From contig NC_057754.1 in NCBI RefSeq assembly GCF_004010195.1, positions 4,097,971 through 4,117,970 of the forward strand: a stretch of 20,000 nt of DNA, given 5' to 3'. The notes under the pieces were generated by a model. The model had not been told where the DNA came from. It worked only from the letters and a program-made list of their open reading frames with translations, and made no database searches. Position 1 is the stretch's first letter; each line of letters starts with the position of its first letter. Origin of the DNA: Chiloscyllium plagiosum (Eukaryota). Below, piece by piece: positions 5,570-20,000 of the stretch. A program made the position numbers and the translations under genes.

Positions 5570-5700
5570 AGGGTTAGAAATCAGATGTAGAGGAAGCTTT
5601 ACTCTGTATCTAACCCTGTAATTTACCTACTCTAGAAGTGTTTGATGGGAACAGGGTAGTGGGAATTTCATTCCGTATCTAGCCCTGTATTGTACCTATA
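5570..5700 (-). repeat. About two units of the ~68-bp minisatellite family, inverted relative to 6985-7470
   Basis: AGCTTTACTCTGTATCTAACCCTG is the reverse complement of CAGGGTTAGATACAGAGTAAAGCT. Confidence 0.75.
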
Positions 5701-5775
5701 GCAGACTATGGAATGAAAACCTGGCAAAGTTTTTTGAAATACAACAATGGATTTATTTTTGTTTTCGAAAATCAG

Positions 5776-5922
5776 GAGCAAGAGGACAAGGCTTTGCTGG
5801 AGACTGAGGTGGAGCAGCTGCGGCAGAATAACCAGCGTCTTCATCTGGAGTCACAGACCACGGTGTGCCACCTTTTAAAAGTAACTGAATTACTGTGCCG
5901 TACTGCCCCAAAGCCTTCATAG
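5776..5922 (+). CDS. SIPA1: SIPA1 last coding exon (EQEDKALLETEVEQLRQNNQRLHLESQTTVCHLLKVTELLCRTAPKPS*)
   Basis: Acceptor ...atcag|GAG, phase 0, TAG stop at 5920-5922. Resembles EKADRAALEEEVRSLRHNNRRLQAES of SIPA1 and the equivalent SIPA1L C-termini. Confidence 0.9.
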   Translation, partial: EQEDKALLETEVEQLRQNNQRLHLESQTTVCHLLKVTELLCRTAPKPS

Positions 5923-6900
5923 TGTGCATTAAGTAGGAGGGAGTGAGAATTCGCTGGTTCTCTGTACCTGAGTGGGACCTGCCTCTCAGTGGCGAGAAAG
6001 GCCAGGCAGTTGTATCTGCCGCTGACTCGTTTTTCTCTGGAATCTTTCGGCACTGGGCTGCTGCTCTGTCAGAGTTCCTTTTTTTTTTGTGTTGTGTTAT
6101 TCTTTCTACTGTGGTTTAGTGCTTCTAGCATCATAACACTGACAGCACGTTGTGACATCCATGTTTCAGGGAGTACACTTTTTGCCTCCTTTGGTGTTCT
6201 GCTAAATTTGGGAACATTTTTGCCGTCACTGTATGGGAACAGGAGTTGACTGTTTGGTCTAGCTGGTCTATGCTCCTCATGAGCCTTCTCCCACCTGTCT
6301 CCCCCATTTCCACCTCACCCTGTCAGCGTGACCTTGGCAGCTTTTTTAACTGACGTTTCCCTTAATAATTACAAAATATGACTTTTTTTTAAGCTTTATG
6401 GAGTCCAACCAGAGAACATGGGGCTTGTAAATGTTAAAGCTCACGGAGGCCAATGGTGTCAATTTCACCTACACCCTCACCTGGACTTTGCTGCATGCTG
6501 TGGGTTGGGTTGTGGTGGGGTTGGTGTGATAGCACATGGAACCAACGTGTGGTTAGCATGTGCACCATCTACTGTTTGGCAGTGTGAAGAAAGTGTGCAA
6601 TTCAATATGGCAGAAAGGATGCAGAGATGCTGATTTGACCTTGTCGATGAATCCATGCCTTCCAGCCTCTCAGCCCTCCAGTGGCCAGGAGATGAAAGAC
6701 AGCAAATGTCACCATTCATAAGGTGATCAGCCTGGGGTAGACCCTTCGAAAAGGAGCTGGGTTTTCCTTAGCACTTGTGCTGCATCACGTCAAATCAAAT
6801 TAATGTGGAAAATTACGCCAAGTTTTCCCATAGCTTATGTAATACATTCCAAAGCCAAACAGAAAAATCTTTAAATAAATAATAATCTTTTTAATGTCTT
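5923..6900 (+). other. SIPA1: SIPA1 3' UTR (~1 kb)
   Basis: Lies between the stop codon and the poly(A) signal. Contains U-rich tracts and no recognisable TE. Confidence 0.65.
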
Positions 6901-6915
6901 CTGTTTTTTTGTGTG
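6874..6915 (+). terminator. Polyadenylation signal AATAAA with downstream U/GU-rich element
   Basis: AATAAA at 6874-6879, followed by TTTTTAATGTCTTCTGTTTTTTTGTGTG. Confidence 0.7.
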
Positions 6916-6984
6916 CATCAGTGAGAGGATTGTCCTACTTTGGTCTTGACAAATGTACCCAAATGAAGTTTAGCTACAGTAAGA

Positions 6985-7470
6985 CTGTCTCTACACTGTC
7001 ACCATCAAAAACTCTCAGGACAGGGGGACAGAACAGGGTTAGATACAGAGTAAAGCTGTGTACCCATCACACACTCCCAGGATAGGTACAGCTCAGGGTT
7101 AGATACAGAATACAAAGCTCCCTATATGCTGTTGTCATCATATATTCCCACGGCAGGTACAGCATCAGGTCAGATACAGAGTAAAGTTTGCGTTACATTG
7201 TCCTCCTCAAATACACCCAAGTCAGGTATAGCATAGAATTTGAGAGCAAAGCTTTGTCTACACCGTCCTGATCAAGTACTCCCAGATACAGCATGAAGTT
7301 AGATACAGAGTAAAGCTTCCTCTATATTGTCCCCATAAAATACTCTTAGGATGGGTACAGCGCAGGGTTACATACAGAGTAAAGCTCCGTCTGTACTATT
7401 CCCCATCAAAAATTCCAAAGGAAGATCCAACAGGTCCATCTACATTGTCCTCATCAAATACTCTTAGGGA
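6985..7470 (+). repeat. ~60-71 bp minisatellite, ~7 degenerate units
   Basis: The AGATACAGA core recurs at 7041, 7101, 7172, 7301 and (as ACATACAGA) 7370. Approximate unit: GGGTTAGATACAGAGTAAAGCTCCCTCTACACTGTCCCCATCAAACACTCCCAGGACAGGTACAGCA. Confidence 0.85.
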
Positions 7471-7946: not shown

Positions 7947-8267
7947 GGGCGGCACGGTGGCTCAGTGGTTAGCACTGCTGCCTCACAGCACCAGGGTCCC
8001 AGGTTTGATTCCAGCCTCGGGTAACTGTCTGAGTGGAGTTTGCACATTCTCCCTGTGTCTGCGTGGGTTTCCTCCGGGTGCTCCGGTTTCCTCCCACAAT
8101 CCAAAGATGTGCAGGTCAGGTGAACTGGCCATGCTAAATTGTCCATAGTGTTAGGTGCATTAGTTAGAGGGAAATGGGTCTGGGTGGGTTGCTCTTTAGA
8201 GGGTCGGTGTGGACTGGTTTGGCCGAAAGGCCTGTTTCCACACTGTAGGGAATCTAATCTAATCTAA
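7947..8267 (+). mobile_element. Full-length HE1-type V-SINE (tRNA-derived)
   Basis: Pol III box A TGGCTCAGTGG (7958-7968) and box B GGTTTGATTCC (8002-8012). V-domain GGAGTTTGCACATTCTCC...GGGTTTCCTCCGGGTGCTCCGGTTTCCTCCCACA. CR1-like tail ending in (AATCT)3. Confidence 0.92.
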
Positions 8268-8379
8268 ACATGGAGATTTGTAATACTGGAGGAGGTTTTG
8301 CACACACTAAGAATTGAAATCAGACATCATCTCACAGAAGCTGTATTATCCCTTAATAACTTGTGTCTGCAGTAATTGT

Positions 8380-8700
8380 CAGGAAAATCCTAGATTGCTT
8401 CTGTTTTTGGGAAAATCCTAGAACTCTTCAGCCATCTTGAAAATCTTAAACCTCTTCAGCCATCAGGAAAATCCTAGGCCACGACTGATATCAAGAAAAT
8501 CCCAGGTCTCATCAGCAATGATGAAAAGCACAGATCTCTCCTGCCATCTCGAAAATCCTAAATCTCTACTGACGTCAAGTTAATCTCAGGTTTCATCAGC
8601 TATCAGAAAATTCCAGATCTTTCAACCAACAGCAAAGTCCTCTAGCTCTCTGGAAAATACTAGGCCTCTTTAGCCATCAGGAACATCTCAAGCCTCTTTG
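8380..8700 (+). repeat. 28-bp degenerate minisatellite, ~11 units, consensus about GGAAAATCCTAGGCCTCTTCAGCCATCA
   Basis: The GAAAAT-like motif starts at 8383, 8411, 8439, 8467, 8495, 8523, 8551 and 8579, an exact 28-bp spacing. Confidence 0.85.
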
Positions 8701-9971
8701 GATAGGAACTGAAGTTCAGGCTATACTTGCTAAAATGTAACTTTGTATGATCACTCTCTGTTGCATTGTCTTTCTATGTCATGTATACTCTACCTTACCA
8801 TAGATCCTACAATCCATAGAATTTTCTCCCATTATCAAATCCTCTCTACTCTCACTGACTTTACTGACCATTTAATCTCCTTCCACAGCTATTACTGTTC
8901 ACATCTGGGCAGTTGCCCTTCATCTATTTGTGTCAAAGAGTCTCAAGGCCAGGTTCCCAATATTCCAGAAGATATTTGACTATCTCAATCTATCCTTGTG
9001 TTTTAAGCCTCAAGTTATTTTTTGTTCTGCTCTCTATCAATAGGAGGGGCAAGCCAGTATATTTTTCCACTTTTATGAATATGCAGCCTCCAAACTCAAC
9101 ATCCTTGACATCTGAAAGGTGACATCAACATTCCAAATCTTGGTTGGATTCGATTCAAGGTCCTGAATATCGGCTATTATATTCTGTTTAACTTTCTCCC
9201 CCGCTCTACAACAGAGCTTCTTTTGTGGCAACTTTGAATTAGTATTAAAGCTATTGGAAAAACTCAGACATAATTAAAAAGGCTAATGAAATCTTTACAC
9301 TTATTCTTTAACATGATGTGACTGTCACTGCTGAGGCCCAACATTCATCACCCATAATTTCCCCGGAGAACGTGGCGGAAAAGCACTGCAGTCCTTGGCA
9401 TGTAGGGACATCTACAATGCAGTAAGGGAGAAGATTGCAGGATTTTGACCCAGTTACAGTGAAGGAACAGCGATATAGTTCCAAGTCAGGATGGTATGCT
9501 GCCTAGAGTGGAACTTGCAAGGATGGCGTTCCCAGGCATAAGCTGCCCTTGTCCATTTAGATGCCAGAGCCCTCAGGTTTGAAAGGTGCATTTAAACTGG
9601 AATTGGTGAGTTAATGTTGTGCATCCTTGAGATAGTACACACTGCTATCACTGTATGTCAACAAAGGATCGAGTGAATATTTAAGATTGTGAATGGGATA
9701 GCAACAAAGCAAGCTGCCATGACCTGCGTTGTATCAAGCTCTTCGAGTTTGTTGGAGATGCACCTATCCAGTAGAGAGTGTTCCATCACAAAACTAACTT
9801 ATGCCTTATAGATGGCAGATAGGCTTTAGGGAGTTAGGAATCGAATTATTTGCCACAGAATCCCCAGTCACTCACCTGGTCTTATAGTCACAGTATTACT
9901 TGTTGGGTCCAGTTCAGCTTCTAGTCAATAGCAATCTCCAGGATATTGACAGTCAGGGATTCAGCAATGGT

Positions 9972-10132
9972 GAAAGTGAGGACTGCAGATGCTGGAGATT
10001 AGAGTCGAGAGTGTGGTGCTAGAAAAGCACAGCAGGCCAGGCAGCATCCGAGCAGCAGGAAAATCGACGTTTCGGGCAAAAGCCCTTAATCAGGAATGAG
10101 GCTGAGAGTCTCGGGTGGCTAGATTTAAAAAA
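9972..10132 (-). mobile_element. Penelope-like element pseudo-LTR fragment with mutated hammerhead and 17-bp TSD
   Basis: Homologous to 10638-10735 and 17329-17430. Flanked by AGGGATTCAGCAATGGT (9955-9971) and AGGGATTCAGCAGTGGT (10133-10149). Confidence 0.75.
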
Positions 10133-10637
10133 AGGGATTCAGCAGTGGTAATGCTTTTGACCATAAAAGGGAGATAAATTCTCTCTTGTTGGAAATGGTC
10201 ATCACTTGGCATTTGGTGCAATTGTCACTTGCCAATCGTCAGCCTAAGCCTGGATATTGTCCTGCTCTTGCTTCATTGTCAGAGGAGTCTCAAATGGTGC
10301 TGAATACTATGCAAACATTAACAAAAATGCCCAGTTATGACCTTGTGATAGAGGGAAGGACATTAGTGAAGCTGCTGTCGATGTTTGGGTCTAGGACACC
10401 ACCCTGAGGAACTCTACAGTGATGTCCTTGGACTGAGGTGATTGAGCTCAGAAAACCAAACCTTTATGCGAGGCATGACTTCAACCAGTAGAGAGTTCCC
10501 CTCTAATTCTCGTTGATTTCAGTTCTGCTCGAGCTCCTTGATTCGTAACAATCTACACTGAGTAAAATAATGCCTTGATGTCAAAGGCAGTCACTCTCAC
10601 TTCACCTCTTGACTTCAACTCTTCTGCCCATATTTGG

Positions 10638-10811
10638 GGAGAAAGTGAGGACTGCAGATGCTGGAGATCAGAGCTGAAAATGTGTTGCTGGAAAAGCGCA
10701 GCAGGTCAGGCAGCATCCAAGGAGCAGGAGAATCGGCTCATGCCCGAAACGTCGATTCTCCTGCTCCTTGGATGCTGCCTGACCTGCTGCGCTTTTCCAG
10801 CAACCCATTTT
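10638..10811. mobile_element. Penelope-like insertion with inverted pseudo-LTR arms (foldback) and 16-bp TSD
   Basis: 59-bp inverted arms at 10677-10735 and 10753-10811 with one mismatch. Direct repeat TTCTGCCCATATTTGG at 10622-10637 and 10810-10825. Confidence 0.8.
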
Positions 10812-11109
10812 CTGCCCATATTTGGACCAAGATAAGGACTGAGTGGCCCTGTTGGAACCCAAGTTAAGCATAAGTGAGCAAGTATAAGTGCTGCTTGATA
10901 ACACTGGTGCTGACAATTTCCATTGTCTTGAAGATTGGGAGTAGATTGATGAGGCAGGAATTGTCCTAATTGGATGTTTTTCTGATTCCGCTCAAAAGGA
11001 CCGGGAGACAAAGGATGGAGTATTTATGTTGCAGCTTAATATGCTTTGACCACATTTGAGCACCACATTTTGGAAGTGGCACAACACAGATTCATCAGAA
11101 TGAAAACTC

Positions 11110-13179: not shown

Positions 13180-16100
13180 CAGTAGTGAGTGCGTGCCCAA
13201 CTCATAGAAGATCAGAACTGAGGGATGCCTCACTGTTGAAAGGTCAGTACGGAGTGAGTGCCTCATTGTTGGAAGGTCAGTACGGAGGGAGTGCCTCACT
13301 GCTGGAAGATCAGTACGGAGGGAGTGCCTCACTGTCGGAAAGTCAGTACTGAGGGAGTACCTCACTGTTGGAAGGTCAGTACTGAGGGAGTGCCTCACGG
13401 TTGGAAGGTCAGTACGGAGAGTCCCTCACTTTTGGAAGGTCAGTACGGAGGGAGTGCCTCACTGTTGGAAGGTCAGTACTGAGGGAGTGCCTCACTGTTG
13501 GAAGGTCAGTACGGAGCGAGTGCCTCACTGTCGGAAGGTCAGTACTGAGGGAGTGCCTCACCTTTTGAATGTCAGTACGGAGGGAGTACCTCACTGTTGG
13601 ACGGTCAGTACGGAGGGAGTGCCTCACTGTCGGAATGTCAGTACGGAGGGAGTGCCTCACCTTTGGAAAGTTAGTACAGAGGGAGTGCCTCACTATTGGA
13701 AGGTCAGTACGGAGGAAGTGCCTCACTGTTGGAAGGTCAGTACTGAGGGAGTGCCTCACTATTGGACGGTCAGTACTGAGGGAGTGCCTCACTATTGGAA
13801 AGTCACTAAGGAGGGAGACCCTCACTATTGGAAGGTCAGTACGGAGAGTCCCTCACTGTTGGAAGGTCAGTACAGAGGATTTGCCTCACTATTCGAAGGT
13901 CAGTACGGAGGGAGTCCCTCACCATTGGAAATTCAGTACGGATGGAGAGTCTCACTTTTGGAAGGTCAGTGCGGAGGGAGTGCCTCACGATTGGAAGGTC
14001 AGTACAGAGGGAGTGTCTCACTGTTGGAAGGCCACTACGGAAGATGTGCCTCATTGGTGGAATGTGAGTACAGAGGGAGTACCTCACTGTTGTCAGGTCA
14101 GTATGGAGGGTGTGCCTCAATGTCGGAAGGTCAGTAATGAGGGAGTGCCTCACTGTTGGAAGGTCAGTACAGAGGGAGTGCCTCACTGTCGGATGGTCAG
14201 TATGGATGGAGTGCCTCACTATTGGAAGGTCATTACTGAGAGTCCCTCCCTGTTGGAAGGTCAGTACAGAGGGAATGCCTCACTGTTGGAAGATCAGTAC
14301 TGAGGGAGTGCCTCACTATTAGAAGATCAGTCCTGAGGGAGTGCCTCACTGTTGTCAGGTCAGTACGGAGGGTGTGCCTCATTGTCGGAAGGTCAGTACA
14401 GAGGGAGTGCCTCACTGTCGGATGGTCAGTACGGATGGAGTGCCTCACTATTGGAAGATCAGTACTGAGGGAGTGCCTCACTATTGGATTATCAGTCCTG
14501 AGGGTGTGCCTCAGTATTGGAAGGTCAGTACGGAGGGAGTGCCTCACCTTTGGAAAGTTAGTACAGAGGGAGTGCCTCACTGTCGGAAGGTCAGCAGGGA
14601 GGGAGTGCCTCATTGTTGGAAGGTCAGTAGGAAGGGTGTGCCTCACAATTGGAAGGTCAGTACGGAGGGAGTGCCACACTGTTGGAACGTCAGGATGGAG
14701 GGAGTGCCTCACTGTTGGAATGCCAGTACGGAGAGATTGCCTCTCCTTTGGAAAGTTAGTACAGAGGGAGTGCCTCACTGACGGAAGGTCAGCAGGGAGG
14801 GTGTGTCTCATTATTGGAAGGTCAGTACTGAGGGAGTGTCTCACTGTTGGAAGATCAGTACGGAGGGAGTGCCTCACTGTTGGAAGGTCAGTACGGAGGG
14901 AGTGCCTCACTATTGGAAGGTCAGTATGGAGAGTCCCTCACCGTTGGAAGGTCAGTACGGAGGGAATGCCTGACGGTTGGAAGGTCAGTACGGAGAGTCC
15001 CTCACTGTTGGAAGGTCAGTATGGAGGGAGTGCCTCACTGTTGAAAGGTCAGTACGGAGAGTCCTTCACCTTTGGAATGTCAGTACAGAGGGAGTGCCTC
15101 ACTATTGGAAAGTCACTACGGAGGGGGTCCCTCACTATTGGAAGGTCAGTACGGAGAGTCCCTCACCTTTGGAATGTCAGTACAGAGGATGTGCCTCACT
15201 ATTCGAAGGTCAGTACGGAGGGAGTCCCTCACCATTGGAAATTCAGTACGGATGGAGAGTCTCACTTTTGGAAGGTCAGTGTGGAGGGAATGCCTCACTA
15301 TTGGAAGGTCAGTACAGAGGGAGTGCCTCACTGTTGGAAGGCCACTACGGAAGATATGCCTCATTGTTGGAATGTGAGTACAGAGGGAGTGCCTCACTGT
15401 TGTCAGGTCAGTACGGAGGGTGTGCCTCAATGTCGGAAGGTCAGTACGGAGGGAGTGCCTCACTGTTGGAAGGTCAGTACGGAGGGAGTGCCACACTGTC
15501 GGATGGTCAGTACTGAGGGAGTGCCTCACCTTTGAATGTCAGTACGGCGGGAGTGCCCCACTGTTGTCAGGTCAGTACGGAGGGTATGCCTCATTGTCGG
15601 AAGGTCAGTACGGAGGGAGTGCCTCACTGTTGGAAGGTCAGTAATGAGGAAGTGCCTAACTGTTGGAAGGTCAGTACGGAGGGAGTGCCACACTGTCGGA
15701 TGGTCAGTACTGAGGGAGTGCCTCACCTTTGAATGTCAGTACGGCGGGAGTGCCCCACTGTTGTCAGGTCAGTACGGAGGGTATGCCTCATTGTCGGAAG
15801 GTCAGTACGGATGGAGTGCCTCACAGTCGGAAGGTCAGTACGGATGGAGTGCCTCACTATTGGAAGGTCATTACTGAGAGTCCCTCCCTGTTGGAAGGTC
15901 AGTACGGAGGGAATGCCTCACTGTTCGAAGATCAGTACTGAGGGAGTGCCTAACTATTGGAAGGTCAGTACAGAGCGAGTACTTCCCTCTTGGAAGGTCA
16001 GTACGGAGGGTATTTATCACTATTGGAAGGTAAGTACGTAGGGAGTGCCTCACTGTTGGAAGATCAGTACTGAGGGAGTTCCTCACTATTGGAAGATCAG

Positions 16101-17328
16101 TACGAAGGGAATGCCTGACTGTTGGAAGATCAGTCCTGAGGGAGTGCCTCACTGTTGGAAGATCACTACGAAGGGAATGCCTCACTGTTGGAAGGCCAGT
16201 ACGGAGCGAGTGCCTCACTGTCGGAAGGTCAGTACGGAGCGAGTGCCTCGCTGTCGGAAGGTCAGTACGGAGGGAGTGCCTCACCTTTGGAAAGTTAGTA
16301 CAGAGGGAGTGCCTCACTAGTGGAATGTCAGTACGGAGGGAGTGACTCACTGTTGGAAGGTCAGTACGGAGGGAGTGCCTCACTGTTGGAAGGTCAGTAC
16401 GGAGAGTCCCTCATTGTTGGAAGGTCAGTACGGAGGGAATGCCTCACGGTTGGAAGATCAGTATGGAGGGAATGCCTCACGGTTGGAAGATCAGTATGGA
16501 GGGAGTGCCTCACTGTCAGAAGGTCAGTACGGAGGGAGTGCCTCACTGTCGGAAGGTCAGTACTGAGGGAGTGCCTCACTATTCGAAGGTCAGAACGGAG
16601 GGAGTCCCTCACCATTGGAAATTCAGTACGGATGGAGAGTCTCACTTTTGGAAGGTCAGTGCGGAGGGAGTGCCTCACTATTGGAAGGACAGTACAGAGG
16701 GAGTGCCTCACTGTTGGAAGGCCACTACGGAAGATGTGCCTCATTGTTGGAATGTGAGTACAGAGTGTGTGCCTCACTGTTGTCAGGTCAGTACGGAGGG
16801 TATGCCTCAATGTCGGAAGGTCAGTACGGAGGGAGTGCCTCACTGTCGGAAGGTCAGTACGGAGGGAGTGCCTCACTGTTGGAAGGTCAGTACGGAGGGA
16901 GAGCCTCACTGTCGGATGGTCAGTACTGAGGGAGTGCCTCACCTTTGAATGTCAGTACGGCGGGAGTGCCTCACTGTTGTCAGGTCAGTACGGAGGGTGA
17001 GCCTCATTGTCGGAAGATCAGTACGGAGGGAGTGCCTCACTATTGGAAGGTCATTACTGAGATTCCTTCCCTGTTGGAAGGTCAGTACGGAGTGAATGCC
17101 TCACTGTTGGAAGATCAGTACTGAGGGAGTGCCTAACTGTTGGAAGGTCAGTACAGAGCGAGTGTCTCCCTCTTGGAAGGTCAGTACGTAGGGTGTGCAT
17201 CACTATTGGAAGGTAAGTACGTAGGGTGTGCCTCATTGTTGGAAGATCAGTACTGAGGGAGTGCCTCACTGTTGGAAGATCAGTACGGAGGGAATGCCTC
17301 ACTGTTGGAAGATTAGTACGGAGGGAAT
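13180..17328 (+). repeat. 33-bp tandem repeat array, left block (consensus TCAGTACGGAGGGAGTGCCTCACTGTTGGAAGG)
   Basis: Roughly 125 head-to-tail units with no unique spacers. Includes 31-bp (CAGTACGGAGAGTCCCTCAC) and 32-bp variants. Confidence 0.97.
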
Positions 17329-17554
17329 AGGTTGAAACTTTATTGCTGGAACAGCACAGCAGGTCAGGCAGCATCCAGGGAACAGGAGATTCGACGTTTC
17401 GGGCACAGGCCCTTCTTCAGGAATAAGCAGAGAGTGTTCAGCAGGAGAAGATAAAAGGTAGGGAGGAGGGACTTGGAGGAGGGGCGTTGGAAATGTGATA
17501 GGTGGAAAGAGGTCAAGGTGAGGGTGATAGGTCGGAGTAGGATGGAGGCGGAGA
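17329..17554 (-). mobile_element. Penelope-like element pseudo-LTR fragment abutting the satellite
   Basis: Homologous to the 9972 and 10638 copies. The minus strand has a pyrimidine-rich tract, then a hammerhead motif, then AATAAA (plus-strand TTTATT at 17339-17344). Confidence 0.8.
17389..17424 (-). ncRNA. Minimal type I hammerhead ribozyme motif
   Basis: Minus strand reads AUUC-CUGAAGA-A-GGGC(CUGU)GCCC-GAAAC-GUC-GAAU. It has the CUGANGA and GAAA cores, a 4-bp stem II, a 4-bp stem I (AUUC/GAAU), a loopless palindromic stem III (ACGU) and a GUC cleavage triplet. Confidence 0.78.
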
Positions 17555-17633
17555 ATCCCAGTCTGGTTCACTGTGATCCTGACCTAATTAAATGTGATCC
17601 CAGTCTGCTTTACCGTGATCCTGACCTAACTAT
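17555..17633 (+). repeat. 21-bp minisatellite (42-bp dimer) running into the gap
   Basis: ATCC recurs at 17555, 17576, 17597 and 17618, alternating CAGTCTG and TGACCTAA subunits. Confidence 0.7.
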
Positions 17634-18548
17634 NNNNNNNNNNNNNNNNNNNNNNNNNNNNNNNNNNNNNNNNNNNNNNNNNNNNNNNNNNNNNNNNNNN
17701 NNNNNNNNNNNNNNNNNNNNNNNNNNNNNNNNNNNNNNNNNNNNNNNNNNNNNNNNNNNNNNNNNNNNNNNNNNNNNNNNNNNNNNNNNNNNNNNNNNNN
17801 NNNNNNNNNNNNNNNNNNNNNNNNNNNNNNNNNNNNNNNNNNNNNNNNNNNNNNNNNNNNNNNNNNNNNNNNNNNNNNNNNNNNNNNNNNNNNNNNNNNN
17901 NNNNNNNNNNNNNNNNNNNNNNNNNNNNNNNNNNNNNNNNNNNNNNNNNNNNNNNNNNNNNNNNNNNNNNNNNNNNNNNNNNNNNNNNNNNNNNNNNNNN
18001 NNNNNNNNNNNNNNNNNNNNNNNNNNNNNNNNNNNNNNNNNNNNNNNNNNNNNNNNNNNNNNNNNNNNNNNNNNNNNNNNNNNNNNNNNNNNNNNNNNNN
18101 NNNNNNNNNNNNNNNNNNNNNNNNNNNNNNNNNNNNNNNNNNNNNNNNNNNNNNNNNNNNNNNNNNNNNNNNNNNNNNNNNNNNNNNNNNNNNNNNNNNN
18201 NNNNNNNNNNNNNNNNNNNNNNNNNNNNNNNNNNNNNNNNNNNNNNNNNNNNNNNNNNNNNNNNNNNNNNNNNNNNNNNNNNNNNNNNNNNNNNNNNNNN
18301 NNNNNNNNNNNNNNNNNNNNNNNNNNNNNNNNNNNNNNNNNNNNNNNNNNNNNNNNNNNNNNNNNNNNNNNNNNNNNNNNNNNNNNNNNNNNNNNNNNNN
18401 NNNNNNNNNNNNNNNNNNNNNNNNNNNNNNNNNNNNNNNNNNNNNNNNNNNNNNNNNNNNNNNNNNNNNNNNNNNNNNNNNNNNNNNNNNNNNNNNNNNN
18501 NNNNNNNNNNNNNNNNNNNNNNNNNNNNNNNNNNNNNNNNNNNNNNNN
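17634..18548. other. Assembly gap (915 N)
   Basis: Run of N. Confidence 1.
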
Positions 18549-20000
18549 AGGTCAGTACAGAGGGAATGCCTCACTGTTGGAAGATCAGTACGGAGGGAAT
18601 GCCTCACTGTTGGAAGATCAGTACGGAGGGAGTGCCTCAAGTTTGGAAAGTTAGTACAGAGGGAGTGCCTCACTGTTGGAAGATCAGTACGGAGGGAGTC
18701 CCTCACTGTTGGAAGGTCAGTACGGAGGGAATGCCTCACGGTTGGAGGGTCAGTATGGAGAGTCCCTCACTTTTGGAAGGTCAGTACGGAGGGAGTGCCT
18801 CACTGTTGGAAGGTCAGTACTGAGGGAGTGCCTCACTATTGGACGATCAGTACGGCAGGAGTGCCTCACTATTGGAAAGTCACGAAGGAGGGAGACCCTC
18901 ACTATTGGAAGGTCAGTATGGAGAGTCCCTCACTGTTGGAAGGTCAGTACAGAGGGTGTGGCTCACTATTCAAAGGTCAGTACGGAGGGAGTCCCTCACG
19001 ATTGGAAATTCAGTACGGATGGAGTGTCTCACTTTTGGAAGGTCAGTGTGGAAGGAGTGCCTCACTGTTGGAAGGTCAGTACTGAGGGAGTGCCTCACTA
19101 TTGGAAAGTCACTAAGGATGGAGACCCTCACTATTGGAAGGTCAGTACGGAGAGTCCCTCACTGTTGGAAGGTCAATACAGAGGGAGTACCTCACGAATG
19201 GAAAGTCACTAAGGATGGAGACCCTCACTACTGGAAGGTCAGTACGGAGAGTCCCTCACCATTGGAAATTCAGTTCGGATGGAGAGTCTCACTTTTGGAA
19301 GGTCATTGCGGAGGGTGTGCCTCACAATTGGAAGTTCAGTACAAAGGAAGTGCCTCACTGTTGGAAGGCCACTACGGAAGATGTGCCTCATTGTTGGAAT
19401 GTGAGTACAGAGGGAGTGCCTCGCTGTTGTCAGGTCAGTACGGAGGTGGTGCCTCACTGTTGGAAGGTCAGTAATGAGGGAGTGCCTCACTGTTGGAAGG
19501 TCAGTACGGAGGGAATGCCTCACTGTCGGATGGTCAGGACTGAGGGAGTGCCTCACCTTGGAATGTCAGTACGGTGGGAGTGCCTCACTGTTGTCAGGTC
19601 AGTACGGAGGGTGAGCCTCATTGTCGGAAGGTCAGTACGGAGGGAGTGCCTCACTGTCGGAAGGTCAGTACAGAGGGAGTGCCTCACTATTGGAAGGACA
19701 TTACTGAGAGTCCCTCCCTGTTGGAAGGTCAGTACGGAGGGAATGCCTCACTGTTGGAAGATCAGTACGGAGGGAATGCCTCACTGTTGGAAGATTAGTA
19801 CGGAGGGAATGCCTCACTGTTGGAATATCAGTACGGAGGGAATGCCTCACTGTCGGATGGTCAGGACTGAGGGAGTGCCTCACCTTGGAATGTCAGTACG
19901 GTGGGAGTGCCTCACTGTTGTCAGGTCAGTACGGAGGGTGAGCCTCATTGTCGGAAGGTCAGTACGGAGGGACTGTCGGAAGGTCAGTACAGAGGGAGTG
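18549..20000 (+). repeat. 33-bp tandem repeat array, right block (continues past the window)
   Basis: Same monomer, orientation and diagnostic variants as the left block. Confidence 0.97.

Follow-up and report, generated by a model that had tools for sequence, protein, structure and literature searches.

The unit described for Penelope-like elements (PLEs) places an inverted, 5'-truncated copy beside the element's 5' end, mostly head-to-head and with a target-site duplication (TSD) (PMC8557442, PMC3846280), and carries a tail of 30-40 bp at one end only (PMC8557442, PMC11167929). The pLTRs of metazoan PLEs contain minimal hammerhead ribozymes (min-HHRs), pairs of which on opposite strands have been noted (PMC4209133). 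A role for the PLE hammerhead in transposition was called hypothetical in 2014 (PMC4209133) and in 2021 (PMC8557442), and the in vitro work of 2024 describes the hammerhead as dispensable (PMC11167929). In that study, both target strands are nicked and extended by the protein of an anole PLE, which begins copying at two internal sites of the RNA, with the tail between them. RNA with an inactive ribozyme is inserted normally, RNA-seq reads with a start or an end at the cut were absent, and the anole ribozyme cleaves when its protein is present (PMC11167929). Within the openly licensed literature, neither a statement that PLE inversion junctions fall on a hammerhead cut nor a per-base count of PLE inner ends was found.

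Here, the window is the whole stretch of DNA that was analysed, comprising 20,000 nt of Chiloscyllium plagiosum contig NC_057754.1 (GCF_004010195.1; positions 4,097,971-4,117,970). It contains a hairpin-shaped insertion, the confirmed structure of which consists of two end segments, arranged head-to-head, of a shark repeat that is very abundant. The insert is likely to be the product of a PLE and is a clean, young example of an insertion shape that has already been published.

Structure of the foldback insertion

The insert comprises 172 bp (10638-10809) flanked by a 16-bp TSD. The left (10622-10637) and right (10810-10825) copies of the TSD, annotated on the plus strand, are identical at 16/16 positions with no extension of the match, for which the probability of chance occurrence is ∼5e-8. 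The arms of the hairpin (10676-10735 and 10753-10812) are complementary at 59/60 positions when G10735 is counted, and a spacer of 17 nt (10736-10752) separates them. The lone mismatch, at 10683/10805, coincides with a private C at 10805 in the short arm, where the repeat family has A. The values given for these features in the first-pass annotation (arms of 58/59, a 17-nt spacer and a perfect 16-bp TSD) all held when the sequence was measured again.

Read on the minus strand, the long (left) arm extends from +1 at 10734, the base that follows the GUC triplet, to +97 at 10638, which is the common 3' end of the family and a position at which loose ends of the aligned records pile up. The right-hand copy starts in hammerhead stem II (-19/-18), runs through GAAAC-GUC and the cut site, and reaches its outer end at +56, or at +59 when the first three bases of the TSD, which also fit the element, are included. 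The short arm, annotated on the plus strand at 10753-10809, crosses the predicted cut at 10753|10754. The spacer (plus strand) corresponds to the 3' half of a minimal hammerhead and contains a stem II remnant, a loop, the GAAA core and an ACGU palindrome. By sequence comparison, the junction base, G10735, can be assigned to either arm and to no particular strand, and constitutes a microhomology of 1 nt; should it be part of the left arm, copying of that arm went one base beyond the predicted cut. Re-checking of the coordinates thus agrees with the earlier placement of the left arm immediately after GUC, with the double fit of G10735 and with the start of the opposite copy within stem II.

The outer end of the long arm exceeds that of the short arm by 38-41 nt, giving a one-sided tail. 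This tail, which matches that of PLEs, covers +60 to +97 (10638-10675, minus strand) and measures 38 nt, or 41 nt without the bases shared with the TSD. At the right outer end, 6/8 bases at the start of the TSD (10810-10817) are identical to the continuation of the element, the first 3 exactly. A match of 6/8 at the inner start is expected by chance with a probability of 0.6% at a fixed register and 2.6% over ten registers.

The predicted hairpin fold of the insert has an energy of -127.8 kcal/mol (z -17.9), a strength that would be expected of any fresh inverted repeat. A search of Rfam returned seven matches, all to miRNA models, with no hammerhead among them. Given that 7/7 scored below the gathering threshold and reflect only the long hairpin, a miRNA precursor was considered and rejected.

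Relationship to Penelope-like elements

The assignment of the insert to Penelope, made in the first-pass annotation, is supported by an end sequence that appears to be of PLE type and by an architecture equal to that of the published PLE unit. With the endonuclease-bearing (EN+) PLE unit it shares head-to-head inverted ends, one of them a 5'-truncated copy, an arm shortened by the one-sided tail of 38-41 nt, a TSD (16/16) and a hammerhead motif in the end repeat. It differs from that unit in that it consists of two stubs with no ORF, and the 16-bp TSD contrasts with the 8-10 bp of the examples in the rotifer paper (PMC8557442). No copy bearing an RT or endonuclease ORF, by which the family could be tied directly to PLEs, was found in the window, and the shark family is not named in the papers searched. 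Family copies numbered zero in public viral contigs and zero in the genome-contig collections searched, and all of the matches in metagenome collections (11/11) were chance matches of 20-34 nt.

A non-LTR retrozyme, the definition of which requires units in head-to-tail tandem and a complete hammerhead in every unit (bioRxiv 10.64898/2026.07.22.740005), was also considered. It was rejected on the basis that the arms lie head-to-head, with no tandem head-to-tail units and no whole hammerhead.

Evidence that the insertion is real and young

Four sequencing runs, consisting of three DNA contig sets and one RNA set, were aligned to positions 9900-10950. The right junction, which includes arm, TSD, flank and the private C at 10805, was recovered with 0 differences in contigs from two studies that span 10783-10950 (possibly from the source sample) and 10789-10950. 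Neither the central nor the left junction was present among the 24 of ∼305,845 pieces listed. An older multicopy repeat, with raised depth in all DNA runs, lies at 10548-10619, immediately to the left of the TSD, and it is because of this repeat that contigs break on that side.

The first-pass annotation had called for related species to be checked for an empty site. A contig from a related species, with flanks that are ∼3.3% divergent, fits from exactly 10810, the first base of the TSD, and is preceded by 42 unaligned letters. On the coordinate reading of this one contig the site looks empty, and is likely to be so in that species. The youth of the insertion also stands, given the perfect TSD and the single arm mismatch, and we infer that it is lineage-restricted.

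Complex PLE units are a source of difficulty in short-read assemblies (PMC8557442), and the central junction was absent among the pieces listed. An assembly artefact would, however, have to account for a perfect TSD, asymmetric arms, a private mismatch, a right junction that is exact in two studies and a related species in which the site is likely empty, and is very improbable.

The hammerhead motif and the predicted cut

The cleavage site considered here is a prediction from the hammerhead consensus. Two other family copies in the window carry the whole motif on the minus strand, with cores at 10093 and 17420. In both, the motif consists of CUGANNA, a single additional base, a stem II of 4 bp, GAAA, a loopless ACGU palindrome and GUC; the min-HHR core (CUGANGA / GAAA / NUH), stem II and palindromic 15.2-16.2 are present in the window copies. 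The min-HHRs of metazoan PLE pLTRs have the same CUGANGA, an extra base before stem II, a G-C closing pair, GAAA, a palindromic ACGU without loop III and a short stem I (PMC4209133); for a min-HHR, stem I is expected to span 4-5 bp. By contrast with these, all but the 3' half of a single motif is missing from the foldback, and stem II is 4 bp. Given that the CUGANGA half is missing, the foldback copy cannot be an active ribozyme. Minimum-energy folds of both whole motifs, calculated for monomer and dimer, contained no active hammerhead fold, a result that is uninformative for minimal hammerheads.

The copy at 9969-10132 (minus strand) belongs to another subfamily (87%), is in simple orientation and has a whole motif with a degenerate core. 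It passes through the cut site, ends at approximately +94 to +97 and is bounded by a 17-bp duplication (16/17) at 9955-9971 and 10133-10149. This copy is older than the foldback and lies only 0.5 kb away. The copy at 17331-17553 (minus strand; upstream boundary inferred) also passes through the cut and ends at approximately +60 to +62, the end class of the short arm. It has a 4-bp stem I between the bases after GUC and those before CUGA, and on this basis the predicted cut was placed at GUC|GA. Outer ends in the window fall into two classes (+97 with approximately +94 to +97, and +56 to +59 with approximately +60 to +62), and the cut site is crossed by 3/4 arms or copies. As far as sequence can tell, the two whole-motif copies support the hammerhead motif and the position of the predicted cut that had been proposed.

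In the subfamily of the foldback, GAUU follows the cut. When paired with the upstream AUUC of family reads, it would give a stem I of C-G, U-A, U-U and A-U, and the U-U mismatch within these 4 bp would be expected to weaken cleavage. TCGA and ACGT dyads lie on either side of the cut site. In the three DNA runs, the upstream-running consensus loses family character ∼7-10 nt before CUGA (family reads at 10735-10760), and in RNA reads the upstream family character extends further than it does in the DNA runs. This loss could be subfamily divergence.

Family breakpoints around the predicted cut

According to the first-pass annotation, ribozyme cleavage had set the breakpoint, and a sharp peak of family breakpoints at the cut would support this. 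The position itself stands, in that the long arm ends on the predicted cut, GUC|GA, to within 1 nt, its stop lying either there or a single base beyond. The peak did not emerge, and an approximate count shows scattered breakpoints with no pile at the cut among the rows listed. Contig records that match the family numbered 165,890, 102,182 and 159,382 in the three DNA runs, in which piles of 1019 + 382, 707 + 266 and 1142 + 453, respectively, run past the cut into the core. The cut site with unrelated sequence beyond it was observed in 0/18 of the DNA loose-end rows listed, and 0/24 of all loose-end rows listed (of 2,762) fall on the cut. Head-to-head joints accounted for 7/15 of the joints listed (of 1,694), with antisense arm ends at +68, +57, +53, +42, +39, +38 and +38, and no row with inserted letters at 10734-10736 was present among those listed. 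The breakpoint tables hold best-supported rows only, are partly uncounted, mix subfamilies and do not follow a strict ranking by count (a row of 7 records is included); they rule out dominance of ends at the cut site but bound such ends only loosely, at < ∼12-17% if ranked by count, so that a minor class may exist.

The RNA run provided 4,099 matched reads from ∼2% of a single scRNA run. In this fragmented polyA library no pile of read beginnings or ends was observed at the predicted cut. From 10735, 185 reads continue into the hammerhead with an agreement of 0.79, equivalent to ∼71-90% read-through, and 357 reads reach the hammerhead core. On the 9969-10132 copy, the RNA depth was 1130, 872 and 569 across 10061, 10079 and 10088, without an abrupt drop at the cut.

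Assuming uniform ends over 60-150 nt, 2.6-6.6% of foldbacks would by chance have one of their two arms terminate within the 2-nt interval at the cut. At this rate per foldback, a family as large as this one should contain many such coincidental cases. The posterior for cleavage at this arm, calculated with a background of 2%, was ∼0.02, 0.2 and 0.57 for cut-site classes of 0.1%, 1% and 5%, respectively, and ranged over 0.1-0.7 with a class of 1-5%. A coincidence is more likely than a trace of cleavage as the explanation for the end of the long arm on the predicted cut.

Proposed formation by two priming events

The insertion was probably formed when a PLE nicked both target strands and reverse transcription was primed twice, with a stop in the long arm that did not derive from cleaved RNA. 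The staggered nicks would have been placed 16 nt apart on the target strands. Priming of the top-strand end would then have taken place without homology at the outer start of the family (+97), and that of the bottom-strand end at +56 to +59, the inner start, perhaps aided by the 6/8 pairing. Synthesis of both cDNAs would have ended prematurely, within the hammerhead or next to it, and their 3' ends would have met and been joined across the 1-nt overlap. The stop of the long arm at +1/0 would most likely be an ordinary early stop or the result of later central trimming. Two priming events are needed given that a single cDNA path fails from either end (see below), and two pLTR copies or two RNAs are needed given that both arms carry the same sequence. 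Loose-end piles were observed at 10638 (+97) in all four runs (1722, 814, 1849 and 630 records or reads), and no pile at the inner start was present among the loose-end rows listed.

Among the closest described counterparts is Poseidon PAc from Anolis carolinensis, which has the same two tail-separated start sites with extension of both strands, and in which, as here, the cut lies upstream of these starts by some tens of bases (PMC11167929). By contrast, priming by PAc is homology-free, whereas the inner start in the shark has a 6/8 match to the target, a difference that counts against the formation proposed above. No protein that could place the shark family in the Poseidon clade was found in the window. 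The 6/8 match suggests that the second priming was annealed, and it offers a test of microhomology use in second priming in vivo.

In L1 twin priming, both ends of the target prime cDNA, an inversion is left inside the TSD, and microhomology is found at the second site. The shark insertion shares the inversion within the TSD and the second-site microhomology, and would share the two-end priming; in L1 the two arms are taken from parts of a single RNA that do not overlap, whereas both arms here are the same sequence. None of the papers listed in a search on twin priming and Penelope concerned such a link by title.

The first-pass annotation had proposed a different course, in which reverse transcription ran to the 5' end of a ribozyme-cleaved RNA and then switched strand. 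A single cDNA of this kind, from which fold-back or strand switching made the second arm, would yield near-identical arms, and self-priming has been proposed for palindromic PLE junctions (PMC3846280). The anatomy of the junction and tail contradicts this course. A cleaved RNA and its cDNA would lack the 17-19 nt after the junction, from stem II to GUC, which lie upstream of the cut, and the tail of 38-41 nt could not have been templated by the shorter arm. Snap-back at stem II cannot supply the tail either and would require an extra deletion of 9 nt, so that snap-back of a single cDNA is ruled out from either end. Overall, the course via one cDNA and the cleaved 5' end is highly improbable, and with a further template, either antisense or uncleaved, it becomes a two-template model. 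A rearrangement after landing was also considered, in which the arms were originally longer, the near-perfect palindrome subsequently lost its centre by deletion, and the junction is a product of DNA repair. Long palindromes are unstable, and the 1-nt overlap at the junction and the TCGA and ACGT dyads that flank the cut would fit such an event. Given that the insertion is young, with a perfect TSD and 1 mismatch, and that no allele with a longer centre was seen, although the pieces listed do not show the centre, we consider it very unlikely.

Two-primer insertion can also be combined with cleavage, such that the template of the long arm was an RNA with a 5' end made by hammerhead self-cleavage, and that of the short arm an RNA, or a second pLTR, that had not been cleaved and may have been the other member of a ribozyme dimer. 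The end of the arm at +1 within the 1-nt overlap is what this would produce, and agreement of the arms at 59/60 positions, including sites that are variable in the family, is as expected from one source. Dimers of min-HHRs via a palindromic helix III have been proposed, and an ACGU palindrome is present here, but PLE minimal hammerheads cleave poorly in vitro (PMC4209133). The anole ribozyme cleaves with its protein (PMC11167929); in the foldback subfamily, the U-U mismatch in the 4-bp stem I of GAUU would predict weak cleavage, and, if the shared G was used at the junction, the template was uncut. A precedent exists in R2, where HDV-like ribozymes set 5' junctions (PMC3774820) and the logic is the same in that self-cleavage marks genomic 5' junctions. 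In R2 the copies agree in this match, which was also tested in vitro, whereas here it concerns one arm in a family that mostly reads through. The lack of a cut-site pile among the rows listed, the scattered joints, the RNA read-through and the read-through by 3/4 of the arms and copies in the window also argue against a cleaved template, and this origin of the long arm is unlikely.

A more specific version, in which two RNAs paired via the ACGU palindrome reached a single target together, the cut one giving the long arm and the uncut one, copied into stem II, giving the short arm, is doubtful. If true, cleavage by PLE hammerheads during transposition would be documented in vivo for the first time by a small class of junctions of this kind, and the dimer would explain identical head-to-head pairs of PLE ends. 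The abundance of the shark family makes cleavage by the PLE hammerhead testable by per-base counts of inner arm ends.

Neighbouring gene and other features of the window

Upstream of the insert, at 5773-5922 on the plus strand, a Rap-GAP gene of the SIPA1 family has its last coding exon, which is 98% identical to two carpet-shark proteins. In the homolog search this exon matched carpet-shark proteins named SIPA1-like 2; Pfam and Atlas searches of the upstream exon gave no naming match. The only AATAAA within 5900-7200 is at position 6874, 3.76 kb before the insert. The hairpin had been placed ∼3.8 kb past the poly(A) site of SIPA1; the distance is correct, and the gene is better described as SIPA1-family, the matched proteins being named SIPA1-like 2. 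The bins 10116-10223, 10440-10547 and 10836-10950, which cover unique flanking sequence, had an RNA depth of 0 in ∼2% of a single scRNA run, a sample too small to indicate silence.

The window also contains several further repeats. A 33-bp minisatellite of ∼126 + 44 copies occupies both sides of a 915-N gap (13207-19972). The third family copy adjoins it at 17331, and a different short tandem repeat then follows at ∼17555-17633. Just past the poly(A) signal of the SIPA1-family gene is a diverged tandem repeat of ∼60-70 bp (6983-7470), an inverted relative of which is located in the last intron (5585-5699). A tRNA-derived SINE-like sequence, perhaps of an HE1-like family, lies at 7947-8260, and a diverged 28-bp tandem repeat is found at 8351-8704.
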